Shown here piece after piece: positions 10,872 to 64,000 of a DNA stretch of 64,000 bases; position 1 is the first letter of the stretch; each line of letters opens with the position of its first letter. Source of the stretch: an uncultured Alphaproteobacteria bacterium (GTDB lineage: Bacteria; Pseudomonadota; Alphaproteobacteria; Rhizobiales; Xanthobacteraceae). The notes under the pieces were generated by a model. It was not told where the DNA came from, searched no databases, and worked only from the letters and a program-made list of their open reading frames with translations. The DNA lies in contig CAVWJL010000011.1 in the NCBI GenBank assembly GCA_963755305.1, positions 14,034 to 78,033 of the forward strand. The letters run 5' to 3'. Position numbers and translations under genes: made by a program.

Positions 10872-11061
10872 CTTTTTACCTCCATTGTACTTTCGAGGTT
10901 ATTATGAAGGAGCGAGCCGTGTCGGGAAGGGTCATTTTCGACCGATTCCGGCGGAGATTTGTCGGCCGGTCGATGTTCGCTTTGCCCCAAAGCGCCCGGT
11001 GCCGGGGTCGGCCAAGGGGCATTGTGCTTGGCCTTACGCCTGTGATTCAAGCTCCCAAACA

Positions 11062-25561: not shown

Positions 25562-25783
25562 TCTTGGCCCAGACACCAGCACCCCGCCAGCCAACGAAGC
25601 GATTGTAGTAGGTGGTATAGGGGCCGAAGCTGCCGGGCGGATCGCGCCATGCGTGCCAGATCGCAGGACCCAGCAGATGCCGTTGAGCACACGACGATCA
25701 TTCACCCGAGGCACACCGCGCGGTTTGTTCGGCAGCATCGGCCTGACGGCAGTCCACTCATCGTCGGTGAGTTCGTAGCGCAT
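25556..25783 (-). pseudogene. IS5-family transposase, N-terminal fragment (third copy in the window)
   Basis: MRYELTDDEWTAVRPMLPNKPRGVPRVNDRRVLNGICWVLRSG is followed by a frameshift, and homology ends near 25556. Confidence 0.7.
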
Positions 25784-25801
25784 GACTCGAGCCCTTCATT
25801 A

Positions 25802-34075: not shown

Positions 34076-34148
34076 ACCACGCCGAGGCAGGTGGCGAAGA
34101 GCGGTAGAGCGGAGGAACCCGAGCCAATGCCACTCTCCGTCGAACAGC
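34076..34148. repeat. Copy A of a ~72-bp direct repeat (partner at 37297-37368)
   Basis: By manual alignment the core 59 nt (CGCCGAGGC.GG.GGCGAA.AGCGG.AGAGCGGAGGAA.CCGAGCCAATGCCACTCTCC) has 5 mismatches between the copies. On the minus strand both copies read ESGIGS(G/V)SSALPLFA(T/A)(C/G)LGV. Confidence 0.8.
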
Positions 34149-37296: not shown

Positions 37297-37368
37297 ATCA
37301 CGCCGAGGCCGGCGGCGAAAAGCGGGAGAGCGGAGGAAACCGAGCCAATGCCACTCTCCTCAACGGCT
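37297..37368. repeat. Copy B of the ~72-bp direct repeat (partner at 34076-34148)
   Basis: See copy A. It has the same orientation. Together the copies bracket hdeD and the FtsX/ABC pair. Confidence 0.8.
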
Positions 37369-40219: not shown

Positions 40220-41194
40220 ATGCGGCGGCGCGATCTCTTCAAAGTCATTGCTGCATCAGCAGCCGCGTGGCCAGTCACTGCCGGTGCGCAGCAATTACTC
40301 TCCCCCGGCCGCTTGATCCGCACCTTCACAGGGCATTCGGACCTTGTCAGCTCTGTCGCGTTCTCGCCGGATGGCCGCACCGCGCTGTCAGGCAGCGAAG
40401 ACAGGACGCTCAAGCTGTGGGAGGTGGCGACCGGCAAGGGACTCCGCACTTTCAGTGGGCATACGAAGCCAGTGCTTTCGGTCGCATTCTCACCCGATGG
40501 CCGCACGGCGCTGTCAGGCAGCAAAGACAAGACCTTCAGGCAGTGGGAGGTGAGTACAGGCAAGACATTGCGAACCTTCACGGGGCATTCGGAATTTGTC
40601 AGGTCCGTCGCGTTCTCGCCGGATGGCCGCACCGCGCTATCAGGCAGCGAAGACAGAACGATCAAGCTGTGGGACGTGGCGACGGGCAGCGAGTTGCGCA
40701 CCTTCGGGGAGCACGAGGGATCGGTCACTTCGATTGCATTTTCGCCCGATGGCCGCGCCGCGCTGTCAGGCAGCGAAGACAGGACGCTCAAGCTGTGGGA
40801 GGTCGCGACCGGCGAGGAACTCCGCACTTTCAGAGGACATAGGGAGGAGGTGTTTTCGGTCGTATTCTCACCCGATGGGCGCACCGCGCTGTCGGGCGCT
40901 CTCGACCGGACGATCAGACTATGGGAGCTGGCGACCGGCAACGAACTCCGCACTTTCAGGGAGGACGCGGAGTGGATCACTTCGGTCGTATTTTCACCCG
41001 ACGGCCGTACCGCGCTGTCCTGCGCCCTCCGCACGACGTTTAGGCTGTGGGAGGTAGCGACTGGCAAAGACCTGCACATCTTCCGAGGACATACTGACTC
41101 AGTCTGGTCGGCCAAATTCTCACCCGATGGGCGCACGGCTCTGTCCGGCAGCGTCGACAAGACGCTCAAGCTGTGGGACTTGACCGCGCTGTGA
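40220..41194 (+). CDS. WD40 beta-propeller protein with a twin-arginine signal
   Basis: The ATG at 40220 is preceded by [30 protein letters not shown] is a Tat motif. Seven near-identical 42-aa WD units follow ([41 protein letters not shown]). Confidence 0.85.
   Translation: [324 protein letters not shown]
40310..41190 (+). repeat. Seven tandem 126-bp coding repeats (highly internally conserved WD40 units)
   Basis: The repeat is visible at the nucleotide level, e.g. GCGTTCTCGCCGGATGGCCGCACCGCGCT(G/A)TCAGGCAGCGAAGACAG recurs. These repeats generate the long spurious antisense ORF at 39376-41415. Confidence 0.9.
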
Positions 41195-44807: not shown

Positions 44808-45935
44808 TTACAAATGTCCGCTAGGGGCTCGCGTTCGGAGCTTCGCCTTCTTTTCCGGCCGTTCCCGTGCCTGATAGAAGTGAAGAATTTCTCGAGCCGT
44901 TGCGGGCCTAAGCCGCTCGAAATTCGCGAGGCATCGCGCAATCTCGCCTTGCGACATTTTGCGATCTGTTGCGCGGAATAACAGTATTCCCTTTACCGTG
45001 GACCACGTCAGCCCGATCGCACGAGCGACAACCAGCACTGACTCTGCGGGCCCTTGTCTAACCATTCGTTCGACGGAATGAAGCGGCAGTTGGCACATTG
45101 TTGCGAGCGCGGTTATTGTGTCATCAGACTGACCGTTCTCAGCCATAGCTCCTAATGCGTTGTCGTTGAGCTTACTTGAGCGATGTAGCGCTCCGACCGG
45201 CGCCACCACGCCGGGATGGTCGGGCGTTTTGGTGAAGGCTTCTGCCTCAATCCGGTTGGTGACCTCGTCAACGACTTGATTAACGGCGCGCCGCGCGTGC
45301 GGGTGCTCGGCCTCGAGCTTTGCTCGGACGTGTTGAGATGCCCACGCAAGCAGCTTACGGAACAAATGCTGCGGAATATCTGGCCGCGATCCAACACAAG
45401 CCGAAAGGCTATCGTCGCCATTTGAGCGCCGCACAAGTATCTCAAATCCTGCGCCTGAGAACTTTGCGCCTCGGTTTCCGACCGTACTCAGTACGACTTG
45501 TTGATCCCCGCGCGCGACTAGGACGTCGGTGATCGCCTCGCTCACAACCCGTCGGCGCGAGATTGCGAGGAGGTGATCTTGCCCCATCCGCTTCGCATTT
45601 TCGACAAGCGTTGGCTCATCGAGCACTGCGGAATGGATAAGAATAGGACGGGCCACTTCAATGGCCTCGTCGAACGCAAGCGCGCGAACAGTTCTGGGCG
45701 GCGCGTGTGGAATAGGTGCCAAGCGGATCGCGAGCAACGCCCGTGCGGAAATCTCGATCTGCACCGCTAGTCGATTGAAGATGTCATCGAATAAATCGAT
45801 CTCTTCGTCCGAATACTGATTCGACCCGACGATAAAGAGGTCCGTCACACGTCGCAGCAACATCGCGGAGCGATCAACCGACCCGGTCACGATTGCGACT
45901 TCGACGTCCTTGATGGACTTGAGTTCGGCAGTCAC
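44808..45935 (-). CDS. DUF2336-domain protein
   Basis: This is a 375-aa ORF. LLRRVTDLFIVGSNQYSDEEIDLFDDIFNRLAVQIEISARALLAIRLAPIPHAPP...VARPILIHSAVLDEPTLVENAKRMGQDHLLAISRR is the pattern I associate with DUF2336 of Rhizobiales. Confidence 0.7.
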   Translation of the reverse strand: MTAELKSIKDVEVAIVTGSVDRSAMLLRRVTDLFIVGSNQYSDEEIDLFDDIFNRLAVQIEISARALLAIRLAPIPHAPPRTVRALAFDEAIEVARPILIHSAVLDEPTLVENAKRMGQDHLLAISRRRVVSEAITDVLVARGDQQVVLSTVGNRGAKFSGAGFEILVRRSNGDDSLSACVGSRPDIPQHLFRKLLAWASQHVRAKLEAEHPHARRAVNQVVDEVTNRIEAEAFTKTPDHPGVVAPVGALHRSSKLNDNALGAMAENGQSDDTITALATMCQLPLHSVERMVRQGPAESVLVVARAIGLTWSTVKGILLFRATDRKMSQGEIARCLANFERLRPATAREILHFYQARERPEKKAKLRTRAPSGHL

Positions 45936-46248
45936 AGCAGGCCGCCCAGTCCACTGGATTGAGTGCTTGCGCGTATGACACGAACGGTGCCGAGACTTGG
46001 GTTATTGCCGGCAGCCTCCCCGCGCTGGATTAACGTAGAATCTTGTGCCGCCGCTCGATCGCATTCTGCCCACCCCAGCAACCGGGCCGTTCCTTGCCCG
46101 TCCCGCCGCCATGATCAAGCTTCCGCGTAAACTTCAGGTTGAGATTTGATTAATGATTTCTCGCTTGAACGGGGCGTCCGGTTCCCAGCGCTCGATCGGT
46201 CTTGCGCCATTGGGTGCGGGCAATCGACCATGGGCTCAAGGCGTCCGT

Positions 46249-46499
46249 AACAATGAAAGCCCCGGCCGCCTTGCGAACGACCGGAGCTTCCAGAAGGTTG
46301 AGCCGAAGTTGGTGGACGGCTCCCCCACGGCATAACGGGAATGTCTTTCGATAAAGTTGCGCGACGCGAAGAACAGCCACTATTCCTAAAGCCGTGGGGC
46401 GATACTGCGAAGGCGCTGGAATGGTCTGCTCCCGCGTCCGGTTCATCCTGTGCGCTGTCGCTCGGCCCTCAATGAAAGAGGCTCTCCATCGCCGCATTG
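46249..46499 (-). ncRNA. Candidate structured small RNA, paralogue 1 of 3 (family not recognised)
   Basis: This is conserved with 51688-51939 and 58279-58581. The 3' end is a 10-bp hairpin (46259-46268 / 46278-46287). It pairs completely only on the minus strand (2 G-U pairs versus 2 C-A mismatches on plus) and is followed by UUUCAUUGUU. No conserved reading frame exists. The 5' end is unknown. Confidence 0.5.
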
Positions 46500-46637
46500 T
46501 CCTGAACGTTCTAATTTCGCGCGCGTTCTACATTAATCGTCCACGCACCCGAAAAATTGTAGGATCAATTGGGGGCAATGCTTGCGCACCCGAGGCGTAT
46601 TTATTCCTTAGGTGCCAATCCTCCCGAGGATGTCTCG

Positions 46638-49209
46638 ATGAGCACTACTGTTGATGCCGTACTTGACGACCGGCAGCCAAAGGCCAAGGTCTTCATTTCC
46701 TACTCGCGCAAGGATATGGCCTTTGCCGACCAGCTTGAAGCGGCGCTGACGGCGCGCGGTATCGACGCGCTCATAGACCGCAGCGAAATCTATGCCTTCG
46801 AAGACTGGTGGAAACGTATCGAAGTCCTGATCGCGCGAGCAGATACGGTCGTATTCGTGCTCAGTCCCGATGCGGTCGCGTCCGAGGTGGCGCTGAAGGA
46901 GCTTGCCTACGCAACTGCGCTGAACAAGCGCTTCGCGCCGATTGTCTACCGGCGGGTCGATGCCAACGCGGTGCCTGAGGCATTGCGGCGCCTCAATTTC
47001 ATTTTTTTTGATGACGCTGCTCGGACTGACGCCAACGAAAATCAACTTGTCGAAGCTCTGCAGACCGACATCGACTGGATTAGAAGACACACAGAATTCG
47101 GCGAGGTGTCGCGGCGTTGGACAGCGGCCGGTCGCCCACGGGGGCTGCTCCTACGGACGCCGCTCCTGGAAGAGGCCGAGCGATGGATAGCTGTTCGTCC
47201 CGAAAGTGCACCGGCGGCTACGGAAGAAACGCAGATCTTTATTGCAGAAAGTCGGAAGGGTGCGCTGCGCCGGCGGAATATTCTTACCGGAAGCCTAGCG
47301 ACAGGGTTGATGGTCGCTCTCGTCCTTGCCGGGCTCGCCTATTGGCAGCGTGGGATCGCAATAGAGCAGCAAGGAATAGCGCTCGCCGAGCGCGACAAGG
47401 CAACGCACAGCTTCAATCTTGCGCAACAAACCGCCGATAGCCTGGTGGTCGATATTGCGCGCGGCCTGCGAAATGTGCACGGCATGAGCGCCGAATCGGT
47501 CCGCAAGATTCTTCGAAACCGCAAGGGCGACTTTCGAGCAGCTCGCAGCCTCTGCGCCCGACAATCTCGCTCTGCAGCGAAGCCGCTCTGTAATGCTCGA
47601 CGAATTCGGCGAGACCTTCGAGACGCTCGGCGACCTCGAGGAGGCTCTCAAGGCCTACCGCGACAGCCTCGCCATCAGAAAGCGGCTCGCCGGCACCGAT
47701 CTCAGCAATACACAATGGCAGCGCGATCTGTCGGTGTCGTATGGCAGGATCGGCGAAGCGCTGGTGCGAAGGGGCAAGCTCGAGGAGGCTTTCAAGGCCT
47801 ACCGCGAAAGCCTCGCCATCGCGGAACGTCTCGCCGGCGCCGATCCCAGCAATGCACAATGGCAGCGCGACCTGTCGGTGTCGTATGACAAAATTGGTGA
47901 TGTGCTGGTGCGGCAAGGCAAGCTCGAGGAGGCGGTCAAGAGTTATCGCGCCGGCCTCGGGATCAAGGAGCGCCTGACCGCCGCCGATCGGGGCAACACC
48001 GAGTGGCAGCGCGATCTGTCGTTGTCCTACATCAGCCTCGGCGAAGTTCTGGTAAGGCAAGGCAAGCTCGAGGAGGCGCTTAGGGTCTACAGCGGCAGCC
48101 TCGCCATCAGGGAGCGCCTCGCTGCCGCCGAACCCGGCAATACCGAGTGGCAAAGCGATTTAACGGTCTCGTACAACAACATCGGTGACGTGCTGGTACG
48201 GCAGGGCAAGCTCGAGCGGGCGCTCAAAGCCTTCCGCGACGGCCTCGCGATCGCGGAGCGCCTCGCCGCCGGCGATCGCAGCAATACGCAATGGCAGCGC
48301 GATCTGTCGGTTTCATACGAGAAGGTCGGCAACGTGCTGGTACGGCAGGGTAAGCTGGAGGAAGCGCTCAAGGCCTACCGCGACGGCCTCGCGATCGCCG
48401 AGCGCCTGGCCGTCGTGGATCGCAACAATGCTGAGTGGCAGAACGATCTGGCGCTGTCTTACGAGAAGCTCGGCGACGTGCTGGTACGGCAGGATAAGAT
48501 CGATGAGGCGCTCAAGGCCTATCGTGACAGCCTAACCATCGCCGAGCGCCTTGTCGCCGCCGATCCCAGCAATAGCGAGGCACAGCGCGATTTGTCGGTG
48601 TCGTATAACAAGATCGGCGACGTGCTGGTACGGCAGGGCAATCTAGACGAGGCGTTCAAGGTGTATCGCGACAGCCTCGCTATCAGGGAGCGCCTCGCCG
48701 TCGCCGATCGCAGCAACGCCGAGTGGCAGCGCGATCTGTCGGTGTCGTACGGGAAGCTCGGTGATGTGTTGGTGGCGCAAGGCAAGCTGGAGGACGCGCT
48801 CAAAGCCTACCGCGACGGCCTCGCCATTGCACTGCAACTCGCCGCGACCGACCGTAGCAATGCCGAGTGGCGAAATGACCTTCAGATCAGCATCGGCAGG
48901 GTCGGCAGTATGGCTTACCGCTTTGTCCTGGGGAATGATTTCGCGAAAGCTCTTGAAGTCGCGGACCAAGCCATCTCCCTCGCGCCCGACGCGGTATGGC
49001 TCTACACCAACCGCGCCCACGCGCTCATGTTCCTCGGCCGTGGGGGCGAAGCGCGTGCGCTCTATCTTCAGTATCGCGGTGAGAACAATGTGCAGAGTGG
49101 AAGGTCCTGGGACAAGATTATAATCGAGGACTTCGCCAAGATGCGAAAGGCGGGGCTTACACATCCGCTAATGGAAGAGATCGAGACAAGGCTTGCGGCA
49201 GGGGGATGA
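46638..49209 (+). pseudogene. TIR-domain / single-TM / TPR-array protein, split by a 1-nt frameshift near 47510 (or an assembly indel)
   Basis: The TIR domain reads KVFISYSRKDMAFADQLEAALTARGIDALIDRSEI...ADTVVFVLSPDAVASEVALKELAY. A post-TIR helix follows (DIDWIRRHTEFGEVSRRW...LLLRTPLLEEAERW), then a TM segment (ILTGSLATGLMVALVLAGLAYW). ORF 46569-47888 loses homology after SVRKIL. The protein continues in the frame of ORF 47593-49209 (ETARATFEQLAASAPDNLALQRSRSVMLDEFGE...) with ~9 TPR-like 48-aa units. Confidence 0.8.
47590..48900 (+). repeat. ~9 tandem 144-bp coding repeats (48-aa TPR-pair units, highly internally conserved)
   Basis: The unit is SN(T/A)(E/Q)WQRDLSVSYxKIGDVLVRQGKLEEALKAYRDSLAIAERLAAADP. 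Nine copies of the WQRDL(S/A)(V/L)SY core can be counted in the ORF translation. Confidence 0.9.
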
Positions 49210-49495
49210 AAGCGGCCCGTAGTAAGCCAGCAAGGCAATCGGGTCGCTCGTACTCGCCGGCGAAAGAGGCGCCCTCCCCGAAATGAGCGCTTCGACCCAC
49301 TGTTGTAAATCAGCGCGCTTGAGTGATCTTTTTCGGCGCCAACGCGTGACCCCTGCATGGCGTTTGAATTGAGGGCTGTGACAAAGGGATGCTAGACTAG
49401 ACGCATATCGGGTCTATGTTGGCCGGCCTCAAGTCTGATCCCACGCCGGTCCACACCTCGAGCGCCGGCTCGATGACATCGCTATGCCCAGCAAA

Positions 49496-51082
49496 TCACC
49501 TTGGTTGGCATGCCGCCGAACAATGGGAAACGCTCGCAAGGCAACTTTGTAGGATTTCCGCGTATTGGGCTTCCTGGTTCTGACCGGTCTCAGTGTGGCC
49601 TTTTGCATTACATGTGATGAATGTATGGAAGCACACTTCGCATGCGTTCTGCTTCTCGACTGACTGCGCCCATTCTCGGCATGATCCCATGCATTGATGA
49701 GAAAGCCGCAAACTAAAATCAATGCAATTTCGACGTTCCCCTTGCTCAATGGAAGCAGCGGGAAAATATCGCTCGCAAACGGAAGTAATGTACGTTCGGT
49801 GCAGAGACCGGCACGATTGACTGCACGCAGCTCGTCGAGCGCCGATTTGCATTCCTAAACTCGGATAGCCGGCGCGAAGCGCATCCTCGAGGCGCGACAG
49901 GTTGCTTTGCGCTTCCTTGTCGCCGAGGGCCGCCGCCCTCATAAACCAAGCTTTGGCCTCCGCTTCGTCTCTGTCTACACCTCGTCCGTTCAGATAGAGG
50001 AGCCCAATATTGTTCATGGCGGAACCATCGCCGCGCGCGGCTGCCTTTTCGAACAATTCCTTGGCGCGGCTGAAATTCGTCGGGCCACCGCTGCCGGCGA
50101 GATAGAGCTGGCCCAACGCGTTGAGGGCGCGCGGCAGTCCCAGCGCAGCCGCCCGTTCGTACCAGAGTCTCGCTTGTTCAAGGTCCCGGGACATGCCGCG
50201 GCCGTCTTGAAAAAGCTCAGCGAGGCTAGCCATGGCAGGAGCGCTGCCGAGTGCGGCGCCCTTTTCGTACAAATCCCTCGCGGTCGCTAGGTTGGGCGAC
50301 ACGCCGCGGCCGCGCTCGAACAGCCCACCAAGGTAGGCCATGGCGTCGGGATCGCCGAGTGCGACGGCTCTTTCGTACCATTTGCGCGCCAGTGCCACAT
50401 TCTCTGGCACACCCTTGCCGGCCTCGCTCAATCGTCCGAGATGAGTCATAGCAGCCGGCAGGTTGAGGTCGGCTGCTTTGGCATACCAGTCGCGAGCGAG
50501 CGCCAAATTCTGTGGCACGCCTCGGCCTTCCTCATAGAACATGCCGAGTTGGTTCATGGCGAAGGCGTCGCCAAGCGCGGCGGCCTTCGCGTACCAGGCT
50601 TTGGCAGTCGCCAGATTGACGTCGCCGCCGACGCCGTACTCGCTCCACCGACCGAGCTCATTCATGGCCCGCGGATCGCCGCCCTCCGCCGCCTTTTCGT
50701 ACCACGTCAGCGCCGTCGCAAGATTTCTCGGGACACCGCGGCCGTATTCAAACAACAGGCCAAGCTCGGTCATCGCGCCTGTATGCCCACGATCAGCGGC
50801 ATCGAGAAAAAGTTGGATGGCCTCCCGGTGCCTTTGGGCGACAGACAGCGCCCGACCCAACAGAAACATCAAACCTGGATCGTTTGGTTTGGCTTTGAGC
50901 GCCGCCCGGCATGCGTCGATGGCCGGGGCATCAGCACCGCCGATCTGGGTCAGCGCGGTAGATAGTTCAGACGCAATATTTTTCGTTTGCCGTTCACACT
51001 CCTCCGGCGATCGCGCCAGGCTGGTATCGAGCAGCAGTACCGACCACAGAACGACCAGCGCAATTTTTTTTAGGAGGTTCAT
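49496..51082 (-). CDS. Secreted Sel1-like repeat (SLR) protein with a Cys-rich C-terminal domain
   Basis: The signal peptide is MNLLKKIALVVLWSVLLLDTSLA. About 9 Sel1 units follow (AxxWYxKAAxxGxxxAMxxLGxLYExGRGVPxNxxxA). The last ~130 aa contain 11 Cys. Confidence 0.85.
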   Translation of the reverse strand: MNLLKKIALVVLWSVLLLDTSLARSPEECERQTKNIASELSTALTQIGGADAPAIDACRAALKAKPNDPGLMFLLGRALSVAQRHREAIQLFLDAADRGHTGAMTELGLLFEYGRGVPRNLATALTWYEKAAEGGDPRAMNELGRWSEYGVGGDVNLATAKAWYAKAAALGDAFAMNQLGMFYEEGRGVPQNLALARDWYAKAADLNLPAAMTHLGRLSEAGKGVPENVALARKWYERAVALGDPDAMAYLGGLFERGRGVSPNLATARDLYEKGAALGSAPAMASLAELFQDGRGMSRDLEQARLWYERAAALGLPRALNALGQLYLAGSGGPTNFSRAKELFEKAAARGDGSAMNNIGLLYLNGRGVDRDEAEAKAWFMRAAALGDKEAQSNLSRLEDALRAGYPSLGMQIGARRAACSQSCRSLHRTYITSVCERYFPAASIEQGERRNCIDFSLRLSHQCMGSCREWAQSVEKQNACEVCFHTFITCNAKGHTETGQNQEAQYAEILQSCLASVSHCSAACQPR

Positions 51083-51294
51083 CTGGTGCTTCTACGGAAA
51101 GTCTGCTCGCTTTGCGGGCGGGATGGCATCAAGCTTATCCAATCTTCCACCGCCAGGGGTATCATCGAACTACGGCTCGATCAGCCGTCTTGGGCGCCTT
51201 TGCCCTATCTATACACGGTTGCGGGCCGTCGAAACTGCCCTCAATATTTACCTTTGTGCCCGACGATTTTGGCATCCTATGGTCGGTGACCGCG

Positions 51295-51561
51295 ATGTCA
51301 GGTGCTCGTCAGGACTTTCGAAAAAGCAGACGTAGACCATCGCGCCAAGCAACATGGATCAACCTTGGCGATCATTGCCCGCGGGTGCGCTGCATCTTTT
51401 GGGATATTTCCGACGGCGGGGCCCGCCTCACTGCCGCGCGCAATGTCGAAGATCTGCCCGATCACTTTTCTCTGGTCTTGAATGCTGCTGTGGAACGCAG
51501 CTGCCGCGTGGTTTGGCGGAATGGACGCTTCGTTGGCATTGCGTTCATCTATACTGCGTGA
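51295..51561 (+). CDS. PilZ-domain protein
   Basis: MSGARQDFRKSRRRPSRQATWINLGDHCPRVRCIFWDISDGGARLTAARNVEDLPDHFSLVLNAAVERSCRVVWRNGRFVGIAF carries the RxxxR and D-x-S-x-x-G PilZ motifs. Confidence 0.75.
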   Translation: MSGARQDFRKSRRRPSRQATWINLGDHCPRVRCIFWDISDGGARLTAARNVEDLPDHFSLVLNAAVERSCRVVWRNGRFVGIAFIYTA

Positions 51562-51687
51562 CGCCTGGACTGGGTCGTGTGCCAAATCAAGCTTATTGAC
51601 TGCGCTCGCTCCGAGTCCGCTACCCCGATTGCGACGAATGGCTGGGGCCCGCGTTGGTCATATCGACCGTGGATTCACGGAATGCGC

Positions 51688-51939
51688 AACAATGAAAGCT
51701 CCGGCCACATTGCGAACGACCGGAGCTTCCAGAAGGTTGAGCCGAAGTTGGTGGACGGCTCCCCCACCGCATATCGGGAATGTCTTTCAATAAAGTTGCG
51801 CGACGCAACGAATAGCCGCTATTACCCGAAGTCGCGGGTGATGCAGCAAGGGCGCTGGGGTCGCGTGCTCCCGCGTCCGGTTCATCTTGCGCGCTGTTCG
51901 CTCGGTCTTCAACCACAGAAGCCCTCCATCGCCGCATTT
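51688..51939 (-). ncRNA. Candidate structured small RNA, paralogue 2 of 3
   Basis: The terminator hairpin at 51698-51707 / 51717-51726 pairs fully only on the minus strand (2 G-U pairs) and is followed by UUUCAUUGUU. The internal helices CCGC/GCGG and CTTC/GAAG covary with CCAC/GTGG and CCTC/GAGG of paralogue 1. Confidence 0.5.
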
Positions 51940-52079
51940 TGCAGTGTGATGGCTCTACAACTGCTCACCGTTGCACTGGCTGCCGCGATCGGCGTGATGC
52001 GATAGATCGCTTAGAGACGACGTTGTCAGAAGCGATTTGGGCTCACCGGACTGCAAGTCCTGATGCCCGAAAGCGCCCG

Positions 52080-55000
52080 TCAAATTCGGCGACGAAGGTT
52101 GCCACATTCGGCGCTTCTCATCGGTTTTGCAAATAGGAACCCCTGCATCGCATGCACTCCGGCCGCTGTGACGAATTTCTGTTGTTCGACGGTTTCGACA
52201 CCCTCGGCAACGACCTTCAGGCCCAATGCCCGGCCGATGCTTACGACTGCATGCACGATCGTCGCGTCAACCGCCAAACCGACATTCGATACGAAACTTT
52301 GATCGATCTTGATCTTATCGATCGGGAAGCGGCGCAGGGACGTCAGGCTCGAATATCCGGTGCCAAAGTCATCGAGCGCAAACGACACGCCGCAGTGATG
52401 CAATTGTTCGATGGACTGCAGCACGGCGGCTTCGGCATCGAGCAAAGCCGTCTCGGTGATCTCAAGCTCGACGCGGCTTGGGTCGATGGTTGATTCAAAC
52501 AGAATCTGCTCAATGCGGTCCGCCGAGCCCCGGCCGACGAAACTGAACCGCCGACAGGTTCACGGCGACGGTGAGCCTGGACCAGGCAAGCGCATCCGCA
52601 CAGGCGCGCCGCAACACCCATTCGCCCAATTCATCAATGAATCCGGTCCGTTCGGCGACCGGCACGAACACCGAAGGAGGTACATTGTCCGCGCCGTTCC
52701 TCAGCCAGCGAACGAGCGCTTCGACACCGAGCACCTGCTGACCGGTGCGGTCCACAAACGGCTGGTACTCGACGTCGAGTTCCTGACGCTGGATTGCGAG
52801 GTGGAGATCCTGCGTAAGGCTGTCCACCGGCACGATCAGGGCCGGCGCGGCATGGCCCGTCTCAAGCAATGGCTGACCGCCGTATTTCTCTCCGATTTCG
52901 TCGGCCAAAACCGCCAACGTGCGCTCCAGCGTGCTCGACAGCGCATCGAGCTGGTTCTGATCGGGCACCTTGCCGTCACTCCTCGCCATTTGCTCGAAGC
53001 TGGCGGCGATCTTGGCGACCTCGATGCGCGCCGATATTGAGGCTCATCGATTTGAGGGAATGGGCCAGCGAGCCACACGCCTCGGCTTCACCGGCCTGCG
53101 CTTGTTGCCTCAATTGACCGCAGGCGCTTCGGCGCATGCTCGGAATAAAGGTCAACCACGCGCTTGAGGAAGTCGCCCTTCTTGGCCTCGCTCAGCGTCC
53201 TCAATTGCCCCAAGGTGGCAGGATCGACGAGCGGCATGTCGCGCCTCCGTCGGCGCTGGATGATCCTGTCGCAACCTCGCGCTCGCGACCGGGCCGTCAT
53301 CATTGACCTCCGCAGGCCTCGCCGGCCGGCATCTGGAATTGCGGCACCTGATCCACCAGGCATTGGGCGAGCTGCGCGATCGTGAACGGCTTGTGGATGA
53401 CCGCGTCCATGCCGGCGAGCCGCCACTCCTCGGCGGCCGCGCCAATCACGTGCGCGGTCAAGGCGACAATCGGAATACGGACACGATTTTCCGCTTGCTC
53501 CGCCTGCCGAATGATGCGGGCGGCCGTATAGCCATCCATTTGCGGCATGCTGCCATCCATCAGGATGATGTCATGCGAACGCCTCGATGCGGCGCTGACC
53601 GCCTCAGCGCCGTTTTCGACGGTCTCGACTTGAGCGCCCAATCGGGACAACGCCTCGATGGCGACCTCGCGATTGACCGCGCTGTCGTCGGCCACCAGCA
53701 CCCTGAGGTTCGCGAATCTCGGCAGCGGGCCATCTCGTCGTTGCCCGGCCGCCCGGCCGTGCAGCTGCTTTTCTCCGGCGGCGACACGGCGCAACAGCTC
53801 CTCGATTTCCGAGCGCAGCAGCGGGCGGCTGATCGCGGCATCGGCCGCGCCATTCGCGATGACGACGTCGGCCGTGGCGTCCCCAAATCGTGTCACCGCC
53901 ACCACGATGGGAATTCGGCCGGACCGGTCCCCGCAGCGGGAGCTTCTCCAGGCGGTCGGCGTCCGCGCATACCATCGCAGCCGATCCGTAATCCGCGATC
54001 GACATCCGCGGCTCGGCGCGCGCACACCGCATAGCCGAAGGCGCAGAGATAATCCGACAATGCCGAAGCGGTCGCTTCCCCCGCTACGTCGACGATGCAA
54101 ACGGGTCGCTCCGGCGACTTGGTGGCGAGCGTCGGCCACGGACGGCTGATCGTCTCGCCGGTCGGAATCCGGACGCGGAACTTCGACCCGACGCCGACGG
54201 TGCTGGAGACCTCTATGTCGCCGCCCATGGCGGTGACGATACGCCGGCAGATGGCCAGCCCCAATCCGGTGCCGCCAAACTTCCGGGTCGTGGATTGGTC
54301 CGCTTGCGAAAAGACCTCGAAGATCGTCGAAAGCTTCTCCTCGGGAATTCCGATCCCGGTGTCTTCGACCGACAGATCGATCAGTTGCGAATCGACCGGA
54401 CACTTGCTGACTGGCGAGCCTGACAAATCCGCTTTCGGTGAACTTCAGCGCGTTGTTGACCAGGTTGCCGACGACTTGGCTGAGGCGAACCACATCACCC
54501 GATATCCTTCGTGGCACGTCCGGATCGATCACGGCGGCAAGGTCGATGTTTTGCGAAGCTCGCGCGCTCGGCGAACAGGCTGGTCACGTTCTCCACGACC
54601 TCGTCGAGGTCGAATCTGCCCGCTCTCCAATTCGAGCTTGCCGGCTTCGATCTTCGAGAAATCCAGGATGTCGTTGATGATCGACAACAGGCTTCGGCCG
54701 GATGTGGCGATGACCTCCGCATATCGATGCAGGCGCCGCGGGATGTCCGCGTTCGCCAGCAGATCCGCCATGACCATGATGCCATTCATCGGCGTGCGAA
54801 TTTCGTGGCTCATGGTGGCGACAAAGTCGGATTTGGCGTGATTGGCTTTCTCGGCGGCGTCTCGGGCGCAGGCCAACTCGCGCGTGCGGTCGACGACTTT
54901 CTGTTCAAGAGTCTCCCGGTATGCGGTCAGGCGCTCGTCGCGATCGCGGATGTCGCTCAGCATTGCATTGAAGCCATCGACCAAAAGGCCGATCTCCTGA

Positions 55001-55638
55001 TCGGTCGCCTCCTCGACGTGCACATCGTAGCGATGGTCCCTTCGGACCTCCTGCATGGCCCCCAGCAGACGATGCAACGGATGCGTGATCGCCCGCTGAA
55101 ATCGCCATGCGATGAGTAGACCGACCGCAAGCGCCGCAACCGAGGCGAGCAGGGTCAGCCACAGGGTCGACAGCAGCCGCGGCCAGAGGTCCGCGGTATC
55201 GCTGATCAAATTGATCCGTCCGACCTCCTTGCCGCCGTCGATCACCGGCACCGAAACGAGAACGGTTCCGCTGCGCAGCAAATCAAGGATGGACGGTGTC
55301 TCTCGGTCGTTCAGCAAAGGATCGGTAACCAGACGCGATACCCCGCCGAGCGCGGCGAGCACATGGCCGTCCGGGGTTCTCACCTGGACAAACAGAAATC
55401 CGGGCACGCGCCCAATCGCCCGAATGGCCTCCAGCGTTTCCTGTTGCTTGAGCTCGGCGACGGAACTCGCGGCTGCGGCCGCAAAGGCCTGCGCCGTCGC
55501 ATGCATGAGCTGGCGGCGCGCATCCGCATAGCGCTCGACCTCCTGCCAGGTCGCAAGCAGCGCGGAGACGGCCATGCCCGCCGTTACGGCAGTCGCCACC
55601 AATATGACGAGCTTTCGAACCAGCGACCGGCGGCGCAC
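52080..55638 (-). pseudogene. Hybrid sensor kinase (TM-HAMP-HisKA-HATPase-REC-Hpt-EAL) broken by at least eight frameshifts
   Basis: Domain segments are found in successive frames:
- HAMP/HisKA: [20 protein letters not shown].
- HATPase: [21 protein letters not shown], then [13 protein letters not shown]...[14 protein letters not shown].
- REC: RVLVADDSAVNREV...DIILMDGSMPQMDGYTAARIIR...IVALTAH...HKP.
- Hpt: CGSLAHSLKSMSLNIGA.
- EAL: EYQPFVD...EALVRW, EITETALL, DDFGTGYSSLTSLR, AEGVE...QGFLFAKP.
Frame changes lie near 54622, 54553, 54425, 54030, 53935, ~53300, 53085 and 52515. Confidence 0.8.
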
Positions 55639-55774
55639 AACGAAAATTCTCCGAAATCAACGGACATTCGACCGGTAAATAAATCACTAAAGTCCTAATC
55701 CATCATTTACGCGGCACTTTGAGGCAATTTTAGATGATTTTGCTTACGGTCACGATCGCGAGAGGCTTTATGTC

Positions 55775-56498
55775 ATGGCAATGCCAGACAACCGAACGAC
55801 GCCGTGGACCTTCGTCTTGGACGAGCCACTACGAATACTCGTCGTGGATGACGATCCTATTTTGCGTGAATTCGCGAGCGTCTATCTCGCCACGCCATCG
55901 GCCACGATTGATACGGCGTGCGACGGCGCTGAGGCGCGGATTCGTCTCGCTCAGGCGGCCTACGACGTGCTTCTGCTCGATATTGAAATGCCTCGCCTCA
56001 ACGGCTTCTCGCTGCTTGAGGAAATCCGATCGGACGAAAGGCTGAGGCATCTCCCGGTCATCATGCTGACCGGCCACGACGATATCGCGTCGATTGATCG
56101 GGCCTACCAGATTGGGCGCTAATTCGTTCGCCACGAAGCCCGTCAATTGGCGCCAGCTCAGCTATCAGGTTCGATACGTCATCCGCACGAGACGGGCGGA
56201 CGATTTGCAGGGGGGCTCGCATGTCCCATTGGAAGACTTAGCCTCAGGACCGGCGCCACCGGTGATCGAACGCGACGTCCGCGATTTTCTGCAATCGGTC
56301 CTTCATCGCGCGGATATGCTCGAGCAGAAGATGTCGGCCGACGATCGCGCACGATTTTCGGAACAGATCATGGGTGTCCGTTCATCCGCCCAACGGGCCT
56401 TTGCCGAATATTCCAGAAAGATTGGAGGTTCTACCACGGACGGCGCGCATCGCGCCAACCGGCGCGATGTCGCCGCAGAGGATCGACTCGTTTGCTGA
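55775..56498 (+). pseudogene. Response regulator (REC + C-terminal helical domain) with a 1-nt frameshift at ~56112 (GGG run)
   Basis: The REC domain (RILVVDDDPILREF...DVLLLDIEMPRLNGFSLLEEIR...PVIMLTGHDDIASIDRAYQIG) ends at a premature TAA. The expected continuation ANSFATKPVNWRQLSYQVRYVIR is in the next frame (ORF 56094-56498). Confidence 0.75.
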
Positions 56499-56516
56499 CA
56501 GAAAGTCTGTTAATGC

Positions 56517-57851
56517 TTGTGGATTTGCAATTATAGACGCGCAAGAGCTTTTGCCGGCGCTCTGAGGCGGCGGGCGCGACGCTTCGTCGGTGACGAAGCT
56601 GCCGGCACAATGATGATGTTCGCGCTGACCTTACCGGTCGTCGTGGCCGCTGGAGGGGCCGCCGTCGATTACAGTCTTGCGGCGTCGACACGCAGCAAGA
56701 TGCAAGCGGTTGCCGACTCGGCGGCGTTGGCCTCGGTTCGCGAACTTCAGCTTGCCCGCACGGATTCGAGCAGGGTCACCGTCATCGCCAACAATGTTAT
56801 CAATAGCTCGCTTCAGAACGTGACGCCGACGATCACTGTCGACTTTCAAGCCATGACGGTTCAGGTCGTCATCCAGAAGCAATACACCCCCGTCATTCGC
56901 ATCTCATCTGGAACGCAATTGCGCGTCAGCGCCAAGGCCAAGATGAGCGGTTCCATGCCGTTGTGTCTGCTCGGGCTCGATCCCAAAGCGCCGCAGACTA
57001 TCGGTCTGGAGCAATCGGCATTGCTAACGGCGCCCGGCTGCTTGGTGCAGTCGAATTCCACGAGTGCCGTCGGCCTGCAATCGAAGAACAACGCCATCAT
57101 GAAGGCCGGCATGATCTGCTCTGCCGGCGGAAAAGTGCAGACCAATAACGCCAACTATTCTCCCACTCCTACCACCGATTGCCCGGCCTTGCCGGACCCT
57201 TTGAGTGCCCGCGCCACACCGCCCATCGGCGCCTGCAGCCATAACAACAAGGTTGTCGACGGCAGCTACGAGACTCTCCAGCCCGGCGTCTATTGCGGCG
57301 GACTGAAGCTGACCAATGGCGCGGTGGTCAAACTTTCGAGCGGGATTTTCATTATCAAGGACGGGCCGCTGACCGTCGACGCCGGCGCATCCATTTCCGG
57401 CACCGAGGTGGGGATCTATCTCAAGGGCAGCGCGGCCAACCTTACGTTCGATGCGGACACCACCATCAGTCTCTCCGCCCCCAAGGACGGTCCACTCGCG
57501 GGAATACTGATTTTCGACGATCCCTCGGGCGCCAGCGCCCCCGCCAAGGCACCCAAGAGCGGTCGAGGGGCCGGTGGCCGAGGAAAGGGGAACAGCGCGC
57601 CGCGGCAGCACCAAATCCTCAGCGACAACGCCCGCAATTTGCTCGGCACCATCTACATGCCGAAAGGCGAGATCATTATCGATGCCACCAAGCCGATCGC
57701 GGACAAGTCCGCCTACACCGTGCTCGTGGTCAATCAGCTCCACCTCTTTTCTGGGCCGAACCTGATTCTAAACACCGACTACAGCGCAACCAGCGTCCCC
57801 GTGCCGATGGGAGTTGGCCCGTTCGGCGCCAAGATATTCCTCTCCAATTGA
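56517..57851 (+). CDS. TadG/TadE-like pilus-assembly protein (Flp-pilus associated)
   Basis: RRFVGDEAAGTMMMFALTLPVVVAAGGAAVDYSLAASTRSKMQAVADSAALA is the Tad N-terminal pseudopilin-like segment. A large Gly/Ser/Thr-rich beta domain follows. The start is uncertain: TTG at 56517 or the ATG cluster at 56610. Confidence 0.7.
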   Translation: MWICNYRRARAFAGALRRRARRFVGDEAAGTMMMFALTLPVVVAAGGAAVDYSLAASTRSKMQAVADSAALASVRELQLARTDSSRVTVIANNVINSSLQNVTPTITVDFQAMTVQVVIQKQYTPVIRISSGTQLRVSAKAKMSGSMPLCLLGLDPKAPQTIGLEQSALLTAPGCLVQSNSTSAVGLQSKNNAIMKAGMICSAGGKVQTNNANYSPTPTTDCPALPDPLSARATPPIGACSHNNKVVDGSYETLQPGVYCGGLKLTNGAVVKLSSGIFIIKDGPLTVDAGASISGTEVGIYLKGSAANLTFDADTTISLSAPKDGPLAGILIFDDPSGASAPAKAPKSGRGAGGRGKGNSAPRQHQILSDNARNLLGTIYMPKGEIIIDATKPIADKSAYTVLVVNQLHLFSGPNLILNTDYSATSVPVPMGVGPFGAKIFLSN

Positions 57852-57936
57852 CAAAGAGGCCCAGTCATATGTCAACCCATAAACTCGACCTTTATTGCTG
57901 TAGCCGATAAATTCGATCTTCAGTGATTTGGTCGCT

Positions 57937-58153
57937 GTGATGTTGGCCGGCGCAAACGTGGCCGTTATTGCCGCTGGTACGCTGCGTCCTTTGGGACACT
58001 TCGGACGGCAGGCTCGCGTGACGGCCGCACACCATGTCGAGGATCTGTCGGATCACTTTTCTTTGGGCTTGAAATGAGGCCGTGGAACGTAGCTGCCGCG
58101 TGGTATGGCGGGACGGACGATTCCTTGGTGTCGCGTAGATCCATGCGGCGTGA
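57937..58153 (+). pseudogene. Decayed PilZ gene, paralogue of 51295-51561
   Basis: At the nucleotide level it is alignable with 51350-51561. QARVTAAHHVEDLSDHFSLGLK-stop and ...VERSCRVVWRDGRFLGV are recovered only by switching frames twice. Confidence 0.55.
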
Positions 58154-58278
58154 TGCCCGGATGGGCGGGTGGGCTGAATCAAGCCAGCGGCTCGCTACGA
58201 GCCGCCCCCGCTAAGTAGCGACCGTATAGCTGGCTGCAAATGCGTGGCGGCCATTGCGGCGTAGACTTACAGCGTCCG

Positions 58279-58581
58279 CAATGGCGAAAGCCCCGGCCGC
58301 CTATCGACGGCCGGGGCTTCCAGACGATTGAGCCGAAGTTGGCGGACGGCTCCCATCCGGCATATCGGGAATGTCTTTCAATAAAGTTGCGCGACGCCAG
58401 CCGCGAGCTGTGGCGGCCAGCCGCTAGCGACGACCTGGCGCTAATGGCGACCAACCGCCATTGGCCTAGAGTCGGGAGCGACACTGTGAAGAAGCCGGGA
58501 CTGAATCTGCTCCCGCGTCCGACATATCTTGCGCGCTGTTCGTTCGGCCTTCAACGGCAGGGCTCTCCCGCAGCGCATTGT
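58279..58581 (-). ncRNA. Candidate structured small RNA, paralogue 3 of 3 (with a ~50-nt insertion in the variable middle)
   Basis: The terminator hairpin GCCCCGGCCG/CGGCCGGGGC (58290-58299 / 58308-58317) is perfect and is followed on the minus strand by UUUCGCCAUUG. The conserved core GGGAATGTCTTTCAATAAAGTTGCGCGACGC and the 5' block CTGCTCCCGCGTCCG...GCGCGCTGTTCG are shared with the other copies. Confidence 0.45.
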
Positions 58582-58750
58582 TGCGAACGCTGCCCGAACG
58601 GCTCATCGAATAAAAGCGCCGTGACCCCTGGCAAGACTTGCAATTTTGGGTAGGCTTCCAGCCCAAGCACCTAGAGACGTTGAGAAGATCAATCAGCCCG
58701 AAAACGACTGATCACCCTTGTCAGAGCCAGATCGCGATGTGCGCAATTTC

Positions 58751-59068
58751 ATGCTCAAATCAAAGCTCGTAGAGCGAATTACAAACCAGAATACCCATCT
58801 GTACCGGCGCGACGTTGAAAAAATCGTCGACGCGATTTTGGACCGAATCGCCTCAGCAATGGCCGGCGGCGACCGCGTAGAAGTGCGGGGTTTTGGTACA
58901 TTCTCCGTTAGGATTCACGCAGCTCGTAATGGCCGCAACCCGCGGACTGGAAAAACTGTATCAGTATCAAAGAAAGTCGTGCCCGCATTCAAAGCGGGGA
59001 AGGAAATGCGCATGCGCCTCAATCCGCCTCTCTCGGGAACATGGAAACAGCCGGATTCGCCCTCTTGA
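58751..59068 (+). CDS. ihfB: Integration host factor beta-subunit-like DNA-bending protein (paralogue)
   Basis: [91 protein letters not shown] is collinear with IhfB (RGFGSFS...R-GRNP-TG...VP-FK-GKELR-R). It is probably not the housekeeping copy, given the context. Confidence 0.75.
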
Positions 59069-61210: not shown

Positions 61211-61546
61211 GTAGCCGAGCAGCCCGCGCATTGTTCCATCGTCGGACTGGCCTGGCTACCAGTCCAGGGCGAACCGGGCGGAGCGGGGGCTGAAATGTCT
61301 GGTTTTTAGATCATAGAGCAGGCCCAGCGCAACTTCAGACCGCCATTTTGTATATGTTAACTCATGACCACAATCATAAAGCGTGAGTTGGCAGAACGAA
61401 CCCAAATTGGTCCTTCAGCCGCGGAAAATCTTTGCCCTCCAATGGGGTACACGCAGCCGAAGCCGGTCCGCGGTCGGTCCCGTTGTCCGAGCGGGATATC
61501 GAGATACGATGACGGGTGACCCAGCCGATCCTCCACTGATCTCGTA

Positions 61547-62212
61547 CTATGAAGGCCCGTAAACCCGCTCGTACAAGTTCCGCAAAATGCCCGCGGTGAC
61601 CCCCCAGATGTAACGCTCGCCGAACGGCATGGCGTAGTACTTGCGCTCGATCCCCTTCCAGTCGCGGCTGTGCAGCGCATGGTTGCCCGCATCCATCAGG
61701 AAGGCGAGCGGCACCTCGAAGGCGTCGGCGACCTCGTGCGCGTTGAGCGTGAGCCGGTAGTCGGGCGAAACGCGCGCCAGCGTCGGCAGGATGCGGTAGC
61801 CGGAGAAGGTGAGATAAAGGTCGAGATAGCCGATCGGCTCGATCAGGTCGTGCCCGAGCCCGATTTCCTCCTGCGCTTCACGTAGCGCCGCCGAAGCCGG
61901 CGTCGCGTCGCCCGGGTCGATCTTGCCGCCGGGGAACGCGATCTGGCCGGGATGGCTCGGCAGTTCGGTGCGCAGCGTGAGCAGCACCGCGGGCTCGGGG
62001 CGGTCGATCACCGGGATCAGCACGGCGGCCGGACGCGTCGCCTTCACGCCGGCGCGCTCCCACATCGCGGGGTCGAGGTCGAGGTCGCCGCGCACGGCCT
62101 GGGCCGAATAGTCGCTGAGCGCGGGCGGCACCTCGAGATTGAGCCGCGCGCGGGCGCGCGCGAAGAAATCCTGGTCGGGAACGGCTTGCCCGCTCGGCAG
62201 CGCCACGTCCAT
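61547..62212 (-). CDS. CoA pyrophosphatase (NUDIX, NudL-like)
   Basis: AAVLIPVIDRPEPAVLLTLRTELPSHPGQIAFPGGKIDPGDATPASAALREAQEEIGL contains a Nudix box, with the upstream LLTxR...H-G-Q-x-x-F-P-G-G motif characteristic of CoA pyrophosphatases. Confidence 0.8.
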   Translation of the reverse strand: MDVALPSGQAVPDQDFFARARARLNLEVPPALSDYSAQAVRGDLDLDPAMWERAGVKATRPAAVLIPVIDRPEPAVLLTLRTELPSHPGQIAFPGGKIDPGDATPASAALREAQEEIGLGHDLIEPIGYLDLYLTFSGYRILPTLARVSPDYRLTLNAHEVADAFEVPLAFLMDAGNHALHSRDWKGIERKYYAMPFGERYIWGVTAGILRNLYERVYGPS

Positions 62213-62228
62213 CAGCGAAGGTCCTGCA

Positions 62229-62827
62229 TCAGACGAACTCCTTCAGGCCGTCGGCGGGAGCCATGGCGAAGAACGACCCGCCCGAGGCGACGCCGAACAT
62301 GCGCACGCCCTCCACGTCGCGCTCCTCGCCCAGTTCGACCAGATCGTAGAACAGCGCGCGCGTGACCTTGGCCCACAGGTTGCGGCGCACGTGCAGGTAG
62401 GGCTTGAGGCCGCCGGTCTGCGCCTCGCGCTCGAAGCGCAGCGGATGGTCCGCGCCGCAGGCGACCCAGTCGTCCACGTTGGTCCGAAATCGCAGATTCG
62501 CTCCGGTACGCTCGCGTCGCAAGCCAGTTCCACGGCCAGAAACGGGGCGTCGTCTACCCATATTCCGCACTTCTCCACCGGCGTGACCAGGAAGTAGCGC
62601 TCGCCTTCGCGCTTGAGTACCGAGGCGAACAGCTTGACCAGTGCCGGCCGCCCGATCGGCGTCTTCAGGTAGTACCAGGTGCCGTCGGCGGCGATGCGCA
62701 TGTCGAGGTCGCCGCAGAACGGCGGATTCCACAGTTCGACCGGCGGCGGCCCCGTGCGGGCGGCCGCGCCGGCCGCGCCCGCGATCGCGTCCAATCCACC
62801 GATTTTTGTTTGCCCTTCCTTCGCCAT
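62229..62827 (-). pseudogene. DUF1285-domain protein with a 1-nt frameshift near 62510 (or an assembly indel)
   Basis: The N-terminal half (MAKEGQTKIGG...WNPPFCGDLDMRIAADGTWYYLKTPIGRPALVKLFASVLKREGERYFLVTPVEKCGIWVDDAPFLAVEL) is in the frame of ORF 62243-63148. The C-terminal half (NLRFRTNVDDWVACGADHPLRFE...GGLKPYLHVRRNLWAKVTRALFYDLVELGE) is in the frame of ORF 62229-62861. Confidence 0.7.
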
Positions 62828-63183
62828 GGTTTGCCTGGAACTTCCGCCCGTGAGAGGCCATTTAGCGCGTGCGATTGCACTTAGCCACCGCAACGTCCGT
62901 GGATCGGGCCGGATACTTCGCTGCATCCGACAGGCAGCGCGCCCGCCGCAGCGGACAACCGGCGATGGTGGCAGACCTGCAGAAAGGCGGGATCGCGGCG
63001 CTTGAAAAATGGCGTATTCTGTAGGCAGTTGATTGGATTCGGGAATTCGAGCGCCGCAGATTGCGGCATTCAGCGTGGCACTTGGCCCGAATGTTGCAGG
63101 TTTTTTGATCAATCCGGACGCTGCGATCGACGGCCCGGAACGCAACAAATCTCGCTAACAAGCCTCGATCAAGGAGCAAGGTG

Positions 63184-64000
<817 letters not shown>

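Follow-up and report, generated by a model that had tools for sequence, protein, structure and literature searches.

Introduction

The AbcR1/2 and Qrr-type families are sibling, that is multi-copy, small RNAs (sRNAs) of bacteria. The related genus Bradyrhizobium offers a precedent: most of its validated sRNAs are genus-specific, and several are present in 2–4 imperfect copies (PMC5082802). Here, an intergenic element found in three copies on the minus strand of a 64,000-nt stretch of DNA from an uncultured, soil-type Xanthobacteraceae bacterium (GenBank assembly GCA_963755305.1, contig CAVWJL010000011.1, positions 14,034–78,033; referred to below as the window, whose own numbering is used throughout) is described and compared with such families. 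The three elements are tentatively read as sibling genes of a species-restricted small regulatory RNA encoded on the minus strand, a reading that we hold with slightly less than even confidence.

The likeness to known sibling sRNAs lies in both distribution and architecture. The Bradyrhizobium sRNAs BjsR5, BjsR6, BjsR7 and BjsR10, which are genus-specific and occur in 2–4 imperfect copies (PMC5082802), resemble the present elements in being few, imperfect, intergenic paralogs restricted to a lineage, and with this precedent a species-restricted family is unsurprising. A further common trait is the combination of conserved unpaired motifs and a strong 3′ stem-loop, the segments in between being variable. 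In contrast to sibling sRNAs, the elements are long (~215–280 nt), have a poor U tail and a hairpin enclosed by the predicted fold, are known from sequence alone, and resemble no described family in sequence or by covariance model.

Three paralogous copies on the minus strand

Alignment, nhmmer and self-blastn delimit the whole conserved element to positions 46223–46499 in copy 1 (277 nt), 51662–51939 in copy 2 (278 nt) and 58272–58584 in copy 3 (~313 nt, including an insertion), always on the minus strand. In a self-blastn of the window, copies 1 and 2 are 84% identical over 278 nt (46223–46498 versus 51662–51938), and copy 1 matches copy 3 in two parts, at 86% identity in the 3′ part (46241–46367 versus 58272–58397) and 73% in the 5′ part (46385–46508 versus 58465–58589). 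A profile built from the three copies recovers each of them in the window with E-values of 1e-83 to 1e-99 (nhmmer) and finds no fourth copy there. Furthermore, two core blocks occur exactly three times in the window, with none expected from shuffled sequence. The 5′ boundary of similarity falls at the same point in all three copies, and at the other end similarity runs on for ~30–45 nt 3′ of a long hairpin. The middle of the element is unalignable between copies; the blocks on either side of it are invariant in all three pairs. The insertion, seen in the alignment of copy 3 only (58399–58446, minus strand), measures 48 nt, lies directly 5′ of the structured module described below and is predicted to lengthen a hairpin together with neighbouring sequence.

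A preliminary description of these elements had proposed three paralogous minus-strand copies at the same sites, and this is supported by self-blastn, nhmmer and the block counts. Its estimate of ~50 nt for the insertion agrees with the measured length, and every helix coordinate that it quoted proved correct on re-check. Accurate in these respects, it overlooked the similarity that continues past the hairpin, the portion of a PilZ gene shared by copies 2 and 3, and the lack of a structural signal in the 5′ half.

The copies lie within 12.4 kb, at spacings of 5.4 and 6.6 kb, in unrelated gene contexts. Downstream of copy 1, on the same strand, is a DUF2336 gene (44808–45935, minus), and a divergent TIR-TPR gene starts at ~46638 (plus). 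Copy 2 has a split EAL gene ~140 nt upstream (52080–52989, minus) and a convergent PilZ gene. Copy 3 is flanked by a divergent IHF/HU-like gene (58751–59068, plus) and a convergent PilZ pseudogene. These neighbours agree with the earlier statement that no minus-strand gene precedes copies 1 and 3.

Coding potential and known RNA families

The elements are non-coding. Candidate reading frames contain stops in copy 3 and, in one frame, in copy 2 too, and one-base indels shift the frames between copies. The open reading frames (ORFs) that cover the elements have a GC content at second codon positions (GC2) of 0.56–0.67, compared with 0.42–0.53 in real genes nearby. In addition, when copies 2 and 3 were translated in six frames and the products joined into one query, none of 5.8 billion proteins matched, so that the element is neither a gene relic nor a sequence mis-called as an ORF elsewhere. 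On all these grounds the absence of a conserved reading frame, noted in the preliminary description, holds. Type I toxin-like peptides and other small ORFs of both strands were likewise considered and rejected, as their frames are not kept in copy 3 and the products are not hydrophobic.

The element lies outside every described RNA family. The preliminary description could place it in no recognised family, and a scan of the whole window with Rfam 15 (4227 models) at gathering thresholds likewise gave no match. Permissive scans of each copy returned hairpin noise only, such as PtaRNA1 at 18–21 bits (threshold 47) and mir-9209 at 30 bits (threshold 90). The models of riboswitches for cyclic di-GMP (c-di-GMP), RF01051 and RF01786 (GEMM-I and GEMM-II), did not match even at E-values up to 10, and the HEARO, retron, intron and ribozyme models of Rfam gave no match either.

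A strand-specific predicted fold in the 3′ module

The 3′ part of each copy forms a module of 127–129 nt that is predicted to adopt a stable, strand-specific fold. In copy 1 the module (129 nt, 46240–46368, minus strand, 158 bits to the covariance model R1 of the 3′ module) is bounded by closing arms at 46356–46367 and 46241–46251, which enclose a 6-bp hairpin with the 11-nt loop UCCACCAACUU (46300–46322) and a 15-bp long hairpin (46254–46292). The corresponding positions on the minus strand are 51679–51807 for the module of copy 2 (closing arms 51795–51806 and 51680–51690, loop hairpin 51739–51761, long hairpin 51693–51731) and 58272–58398 for that of copy 3 (closing arms 58386–58397 and 58272–58282, loop hairpin 58330–58352, long hairpin 58285–58322).

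Folding statistics differ between the strands. Taken singly, whole elements have minus-strand z-scores of -1.2 to -2.0; the alignment of whole elements, tested against column shuffles, gives -3.25 on the minus strand versus -1.77 on the plus strand. From the core to the end of the hairpin the alignment values are -3.8 (minus) versus -1.3 (plus), and adding the segment after the hairpin moves the minus-strand z-score from -3.8 to -5.0, with a structure conservation index (SCI) of 0.86, versus -2.1 (SCI 0.79) on the plus strand. Folded singly, the modules of copies 1, 2 and 3 have z-scores of -2.8, -4.0 and -5.3 (minus) versus -1.0, -1.9 and -3.2 (plus).

All three minimum free energy (MFE) folds contain a predicted closing helix of 10–11 bp, in which GCGUC-G-CGCAAC pairs with GUUGCG-GACGC. 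The 3′ arm of this helix lies 3′ of the long hairpin, and its invariant 5′ partner is GCGUCGCGCAAC. Inside the module, the invariant A/U-rich stretch UUUAUUGAAAGACAUUCCCG is predicted to be unpaired, and the 6-bp hairpin with its C/A-rich loop appears in the consensus fold as well as in two of the MFE folds, those of copies 1 and 2. All 15 bp of the long hairpin are paired (100%), with compatible variation at 5 of the 15 pairs, including C-G, U-A and U-G at one and the same position. Copies 1 and 2 each have two G-U pairs in its 10-bp core, where copy 3 has Watson-Crick pairs throughout; read on the plus strand, these G-U pairs turn into A-C mismatches, which makes the fold specific to the minus strand. 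The preliminary observation that this hairpin pairs completely on the minus strand only is thus upheld by the G-U pairs and by the strand difference in z-scores.

Alternative pairings are conceivable within the module. Both UGAAAG (46345–46350) and UGGAAG (46287–46292) are able to pair with CUUUCA at the base of the long hairpin (46254–46259), and since one CUUUCA has two upstream partners, mutually exclusive pairings are possible in all three copies. Switching of this kind would suit a 5′ leader or riboswitch-like control of a downstream minus-strand gene, with the hairpin as expression platform. The DUF2336 gene does follow copy 1 at a distance of 288 nt and a Sel1 gene follows copy 2 at 580 nt, each on the strand of the element, and c-di-GMP genes (GGDEF/EAL, EAL and PilZ) abound in the neighbourhood. 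However, the downstream genes are mutually unrelated, copy 3 has no same-strand gene downstream but only the antisense PilZ pseudogene and TadG, the distances to start codons are long and not conserved, and neither the c-di-GMP-I/-II models nor any other riboswitch model matched at E-values up to 10. Control by a leader is accordingly considered very improbable.

The long hairpin and transcription termination

Each copy had been described as ending in an intrinsic terminator, a claim that the analysis does not support. The very strong stem of 10–15 bp is 100% paired and carries a loop of 8–9 nt, and the tail that follows it (UUUCAUUGUU in copies 1 and 2, UUUCGCCAUUG in copy 3) is a weak U tract, the U residues of which would be engaged, in the predicted fold, with UGGAAG at the stem base. 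A consensus terminator scan called none of the three hairpins. Nor does the hairpin seem to mark the 3′ end of the functional unit, given that conservation continues ~30–45 nt beyond it and the predicted closing helix encloses it. The hairpin may terminate some transcripts. On the plus strand, where it has 2–3 A-C mismatches and lacks a T run behind it, the hairpin does not act as terminator of the convergent PilZ gene.

A very stable hairpin as the dominant feature recalls the REP/BIME elements and Br-REP1/2, which, like the present element, are repeated, intergenic, hairpin-forming and at times placed between convergent genes. The element could accordingly be a repeated intergenic sequence with a REP/BIME-like role in cis or at the DNA level, as a transcription barrier or attenuator, a stabiliser of mRNA 3′ ends between neighbouring genes or a cluster of protein-binding sites, and would then not give rise to a diffusible RNA. 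This explanation is unlikely, though it deserves real weight. It fits the position of copy 2, which lies 140 nt 3′ of the same-strand EAL gene and between convergent genes, the orientation of copies 2 and 3 towards the 3′ end of PilZ, and the presence in the 5′ half of conserved sequence without structure; moreover, the REP elements of Bradyrhizobium are transcribed parts of 3′ untranslated regions (PMC5082802). It fits less well with copies 1 and 3, which have no co-oriented upstream gene, and with the plus-strand form of the hairpin, which is no terminator for PilZ. Furthermore, only three copies are seen, not tens to hundreds, and a branched, asymmetric fold of ~280 nt is far larger than REP-type palindromes of 20–40 nt. 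The consensus palindromes of Br-REP1 and Br-REP2 themselves had no match at up to 3 mismatches.

The 5′ half and a candidate promoter

In the 5′ half the alignment carries no structural signal (z-score -0.56 on the minus strand and -1.24 on the plus strand). What is conserved there, ~35–65 nt inside the shared 5′ boundary, is the pattern TTGA(A/G)G-N16/17-CA(A/G)GAT. Read from the alignment, it provides a candidate minus-strand promoter in copy 1 (TTGAGG-N16-CAGGAT, 46445–46472), which is below the threshold of the promoter scan, and in copies 2 and 3 (TTGAAG-N17-CAAGAT in both, 51884–51912 and 58526–58554), where the scan did not call it. A duplicated gene must bring its own promoter to stay expressed, and on that argument the first ~60 nt are read as a promoter; conversely, a shared 5′ boundary with a -35/-10-like pair inside it is what would be expected if the duplicated unit carries its own promoter. 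The 5′ half thus seems more like a conserved promoter region than a folded RNA, and transcription would start near GGACGCGGGAGCA.

Two parts of the preliminary description are modified by these results. Two helices in the 5′ half had been presented as covarying, and their coordinates are correct; they lie, however, in the half that has no structural signal, and their covariation does not exceed that of shuffles. For the GTGG/GCGG strand of one of them there are two or more alternative partners with parallel changes, including a long-range CAC versus CGC, and neither pairing is preferred. Similarly, a conserved element of the size given for the RNA (~250–300 nt) does exist, but its 5′ 60 nt may be promoter and not transcript. 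Other signals were checked by eye and set aside: an ECF/EcfG-type promoter (GGAAC-N16-CGTT) fits copy 1 only, the spacing of a sigma-54 promoter is not conserved, and neither an IHF site nor a FixK/CRP box matches in the invariant block.

Sequence constraint

Copies 2 and 3 belong to a larger duplicated unit (51360–51942 versus 57953–58584), whose extra ~300 nt correspond to the 3′ portion of the PilZ gene on the opposite strand. Next to copy 2 this gene is intact (51295–51561, plus strand, convergent with the element) and encodes a small protein of 88 aa, in which RKSRRRP and DISDGG read as putative c-di-GMP-binding motifs. Next to copy 3, the paralog of 51360–51561 is a pseudogene with frameshifts and stops (57953–58190, plus strand, also convergent). 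The two PilZ sequences differ at 13/66, 9/67 and 20/67 sites of the first, second and third codon positions, and the divergence of ~30% at the weakly constrained PilZ sites of this same duplication serves as a neutral yardstick. The spacer between PilZ and the element has fallen to 46% identity and is no longer alignable.

Measured in this way, the conservation of parts of the element greatly exceeds the neutral level. Copies 2 and 3 agree at all 38 nt of the block GCGTCGCGCAACTTTATTGAAAGACATTCCCGATATGC, from which copy 1 departs at two sites, and the chance of 38 identical bases at 30% divergence is ~1e-6, which points to selection or gene conversion. Invariant blocks beside unalignable segments are the pattern that purifying selection produces, although patchy gene conversion may mimic it.

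The copies could also be functionless leftovers of old segmental duplications, kept alike in patches by gene conversion, given that copies 2 and 3 sit within a larger duplication whose PilZ part has degenerated into a pseudogene, and that the identity between them in the element (75–85%) is not much higher than the 78% of the PilZ remnant. Against such a history, every pair of copies has the same invariant blocks next to segments that do not align, a stable strand-specific fold has been kept through compatible changes, and copy 1 retains the element only, with no flanks. Mere leftovers are on these grounds improbable.

Distribution across genomes

The window is part of a 288-kb contig whose GroEL groups with proteins from Xanthobacteraceae metagenome-assembled genomes. 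A second assembly of the species (ENA ERZ25039502, contig_249364) carries the same three copies, in aligned regions that are ~96–99.7% identical, and its extra 7 kb contain no fourth copy. Copies 1 and 3 are identical between the two assemblies and copy 2 differs at one base, so that the second assembly adds nothing on constraint.

Elsewhere, exact scans with the core blocks found one chance match in 185,579 GTDB species genomes (a coding region of Flavobacteriales), one chance match in JGI metagenomes (again a coding region) and none in IMG/VR, and blastn in distant mode found none in plasmid and phage collections. These homolog scans need 20–21 exact bases or ~65–70% identity, and divergent homologs could escape them. 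Orthologs of the neighbouring genes gave the same picture. The element is absent from a contig with a DUF2336 ortholog (64% identity) and, by nhmmer --max and model R1, from eleven contigs with PilZ orthologs (67–78% identity). Metagenomic PilZ orthologs in this range of identity often adjoin Flp pilin genes, without the element. Outside the species, the nearest DUF2336 homologs are only 64–67% identical, which indicates that the databases contain no close relative of it. As far as exact-match and similarity searches reach, the element appears confined to one species, represented by two assemblies.

Possible signs of mobility

Several features would suit a relic, or a non-autonomous partner, of a mobile or retro-element, whether a miniature inverted-repeat transposable element (MITE), an orphan retron-like non-coding RNA, an attC-like single-strand recombination site or the guide-RNA scaffold of a lost transposon nuclease. 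The copies are repeated in one orientation with sharp shared boundaries, and copy 1 adjoins a TIR-TPR gene, a defence-type neighbour. Inverted repeats of 11–12 nt (GCGTC-G-CGCAAC and GTTGCG-GACGC) close the module and resemble RYYYAAC/GTTRRRY core sites. The G-T pairs of the hairpin would also be tolerated in folded single-stranded DNA. At the ends of copy 3, finally, stands an exactly placed 12-nt inverted repeat (58270–58281 and 58581–58592, 11 of 12 positions complementary), the 5′ arm of which resembles the module's own closing-helix 5′ strand.

The comparison with individual systems is less favourable. As in a retron msr-msd, terminal inverted repeats close the module, short hairpins come first and the long hairpin stands against the 3′ arm in the predicted topology; unlike in retrons, no reverse transcriptase gene is adjacent or present anywhere in the 71 kb covered, a set of three orphan copies would be without precedent, and no Rfam model of retrons, introns or ribozymes matches. 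Integron attC sites and clusters of attC sites lacking integron-integrases (CALIN) share the same-orientation repeats of ~125 nt, the ...GCGCAAC / GTTGCG... bounds and the strand-specific folding. An attC site, however, folds into a single imperfect hairpin and not into a branched structure, and GCGCAAC and GTTGCGC/GTTACGG deviate from RYYYAAC/GTTRRRY at one or two positions; in addition, the copies are 5–7 kb apart, enclose multi-gene, two-strand content that is not cassette-like, and are accompanied by no integrase. A guide or bridge RNA of IS200/IS605 or IS110 elements finds no partner either, as no tnpB/iscB or IS110 recombinase gene occurs in the window. A MITE or other non-autonomous DNA transposon was rejected, since the terminal repeat is found in copy 3 only, flanking direct repeats are lacking, and a PilZ flank is common to copies 2 and 3.

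More generally, the 64-kb window and the 7 kb beyond it contain no gene for a reverse transcriptase, integrase, TnpA/TnpB or IS110-type enzyme. The sole transposase in the window belongs to an IS5 element at 10804–11835 (plus strand), 35 kb away, of which two partial copies were also observed (9096–9515 and 25555–25794). No target-site duplications or flanking direct repeats were seen at the three copies, and neither copy 1 nor copy 2 has the terminal repeat of copy 3. The mobile-element check named in the preliminary description therefore turned up neither target-site duplications nor terminal repeats common to the copies. The copies are, moreover, old and unevenly diverged, unlike a recent burst. 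The shared PilZ flank, the lack of direct repeats and the absence of a partner enzyme favour an old segmental duplication over precise transposition, and a mobile relic is considered distinctly unlikely. A bolder variant treats the 127–129-nt module as a new class, either an orphan retron-like or self-processing RNA or a strand-specific recombination site in single-stranded DNA whose enzyme would be encoded elsewhere, with the 38-nt block as catalytic or recognition core; to this we attach very little probability.

Candidate sibling small RNA genes

The reading as sibling sRNA genes draws on the presence of several paralogous copies, which are intergenic and non-coding and preserve motifs predicted to be unpaired. 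According to this proposal, each gene would produce an RNA of ~215 nt or somewhat longer. The 5′ half would comprise the gene's own promoter and the first, variable stem of the transcript, and the 3′ module would be the functional body of the RNA. The unpaired A/U-rich stretch and the C/A-rich loop could serve as contact surfaces for target mRNAs or a protein, by which the RNA would act in trans. Protection of the 3′ region would fall to the long hairpin, which may also end a fraction of the transcripts.

Several observations count against this proposal. The hairpin is a poor terminator, no other terminator is seen downstream, and the predicted fold needs sequence beyond the hairpin. The candidate promoter matches the Escherichia coli consensus at only 7 of 12 positions, none was called by the scan, and its spacer is conserved as much as its hexamers. 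With three sequences, covariation is no higher than in column shuffles: the structure is 95% paired with one double change, and most helices are invariant. Gene conversion could have imitated selection on the element, and no homolog was found outside the species by searches that need 20–21 exact bases or recognisable similarity. Finally, the 64-kb window was scanned for duplexes with the unpaired A/U-rich stretch, the loop of the hairpin and the linker, all three of them conserved, and no convincing target site emerged, with background-level z-scores of ~-4 to -5 among ~32,000 windows. Altogether, the elements most likely represent a small new family of an already familiar kind.

Variation in the surrounding region

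Besides the elements, the region differs between the two assemblies in several ways. The EAL gene upstream of copy 2 is split into two ORFs (52510–52989 and 52080–52445, minus strand) and is probably a pseudogene; in the second assembly only a 133-aa EAL fragment is called. A one-base indel at 47513 (an extra A) makes TIR-TPR a single ORF of 856 aa in the second assembly and a split one in the window, and another at 45814 gives a DUF2336 protein of 375 aa in the window versus 282 aa in the second assembly; both indels are either real frameshifts or assembly errors. The assemblies differ by 4–15% at 52200–56300 and 61500–64000 and by under 0.5% elsewhere, and the second one has a 2.6-kb insertion (Flp pilin and a DUF2336 paralog) adjoining the DUF2336 gene. 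This patchy divergence and the insertion suggest local recombination between strains.

The window also contains further repeats. A tandem repeat with a period of ~144 nt occupies the TPR part of the TIR-TPR gene (47629–48871, plus strand), and others with periods of ~126 and ~102 nt lie in the 39–41 kb region (40317–41182 and 39242–39729), inside the genes for a TPR protein and an unannotated ORF of 679 aa. A 61-nt direct repeat (34078–34138 and 37299–37359, 92% identical) flanks a 3.2-kb segment with genes for DUF308, a DevC-like permease and an ABC ATPase.

Implications

The wider impact of these elements is limited, as they concern one uncultured species and touch no long-standing open question. 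If they are transcribed, they would constitute an undescribed family of sibling sRNAs in an uncultured Xanthobacteraceae lineage, located among c-di-GMP and Flp/Tad pilus genes, and would be a further instance of the rapid turnover of bacterial sRNAs from lineage to lineage. They would also provide a defined candidate for the regulation of surface behaviour in that lineage.

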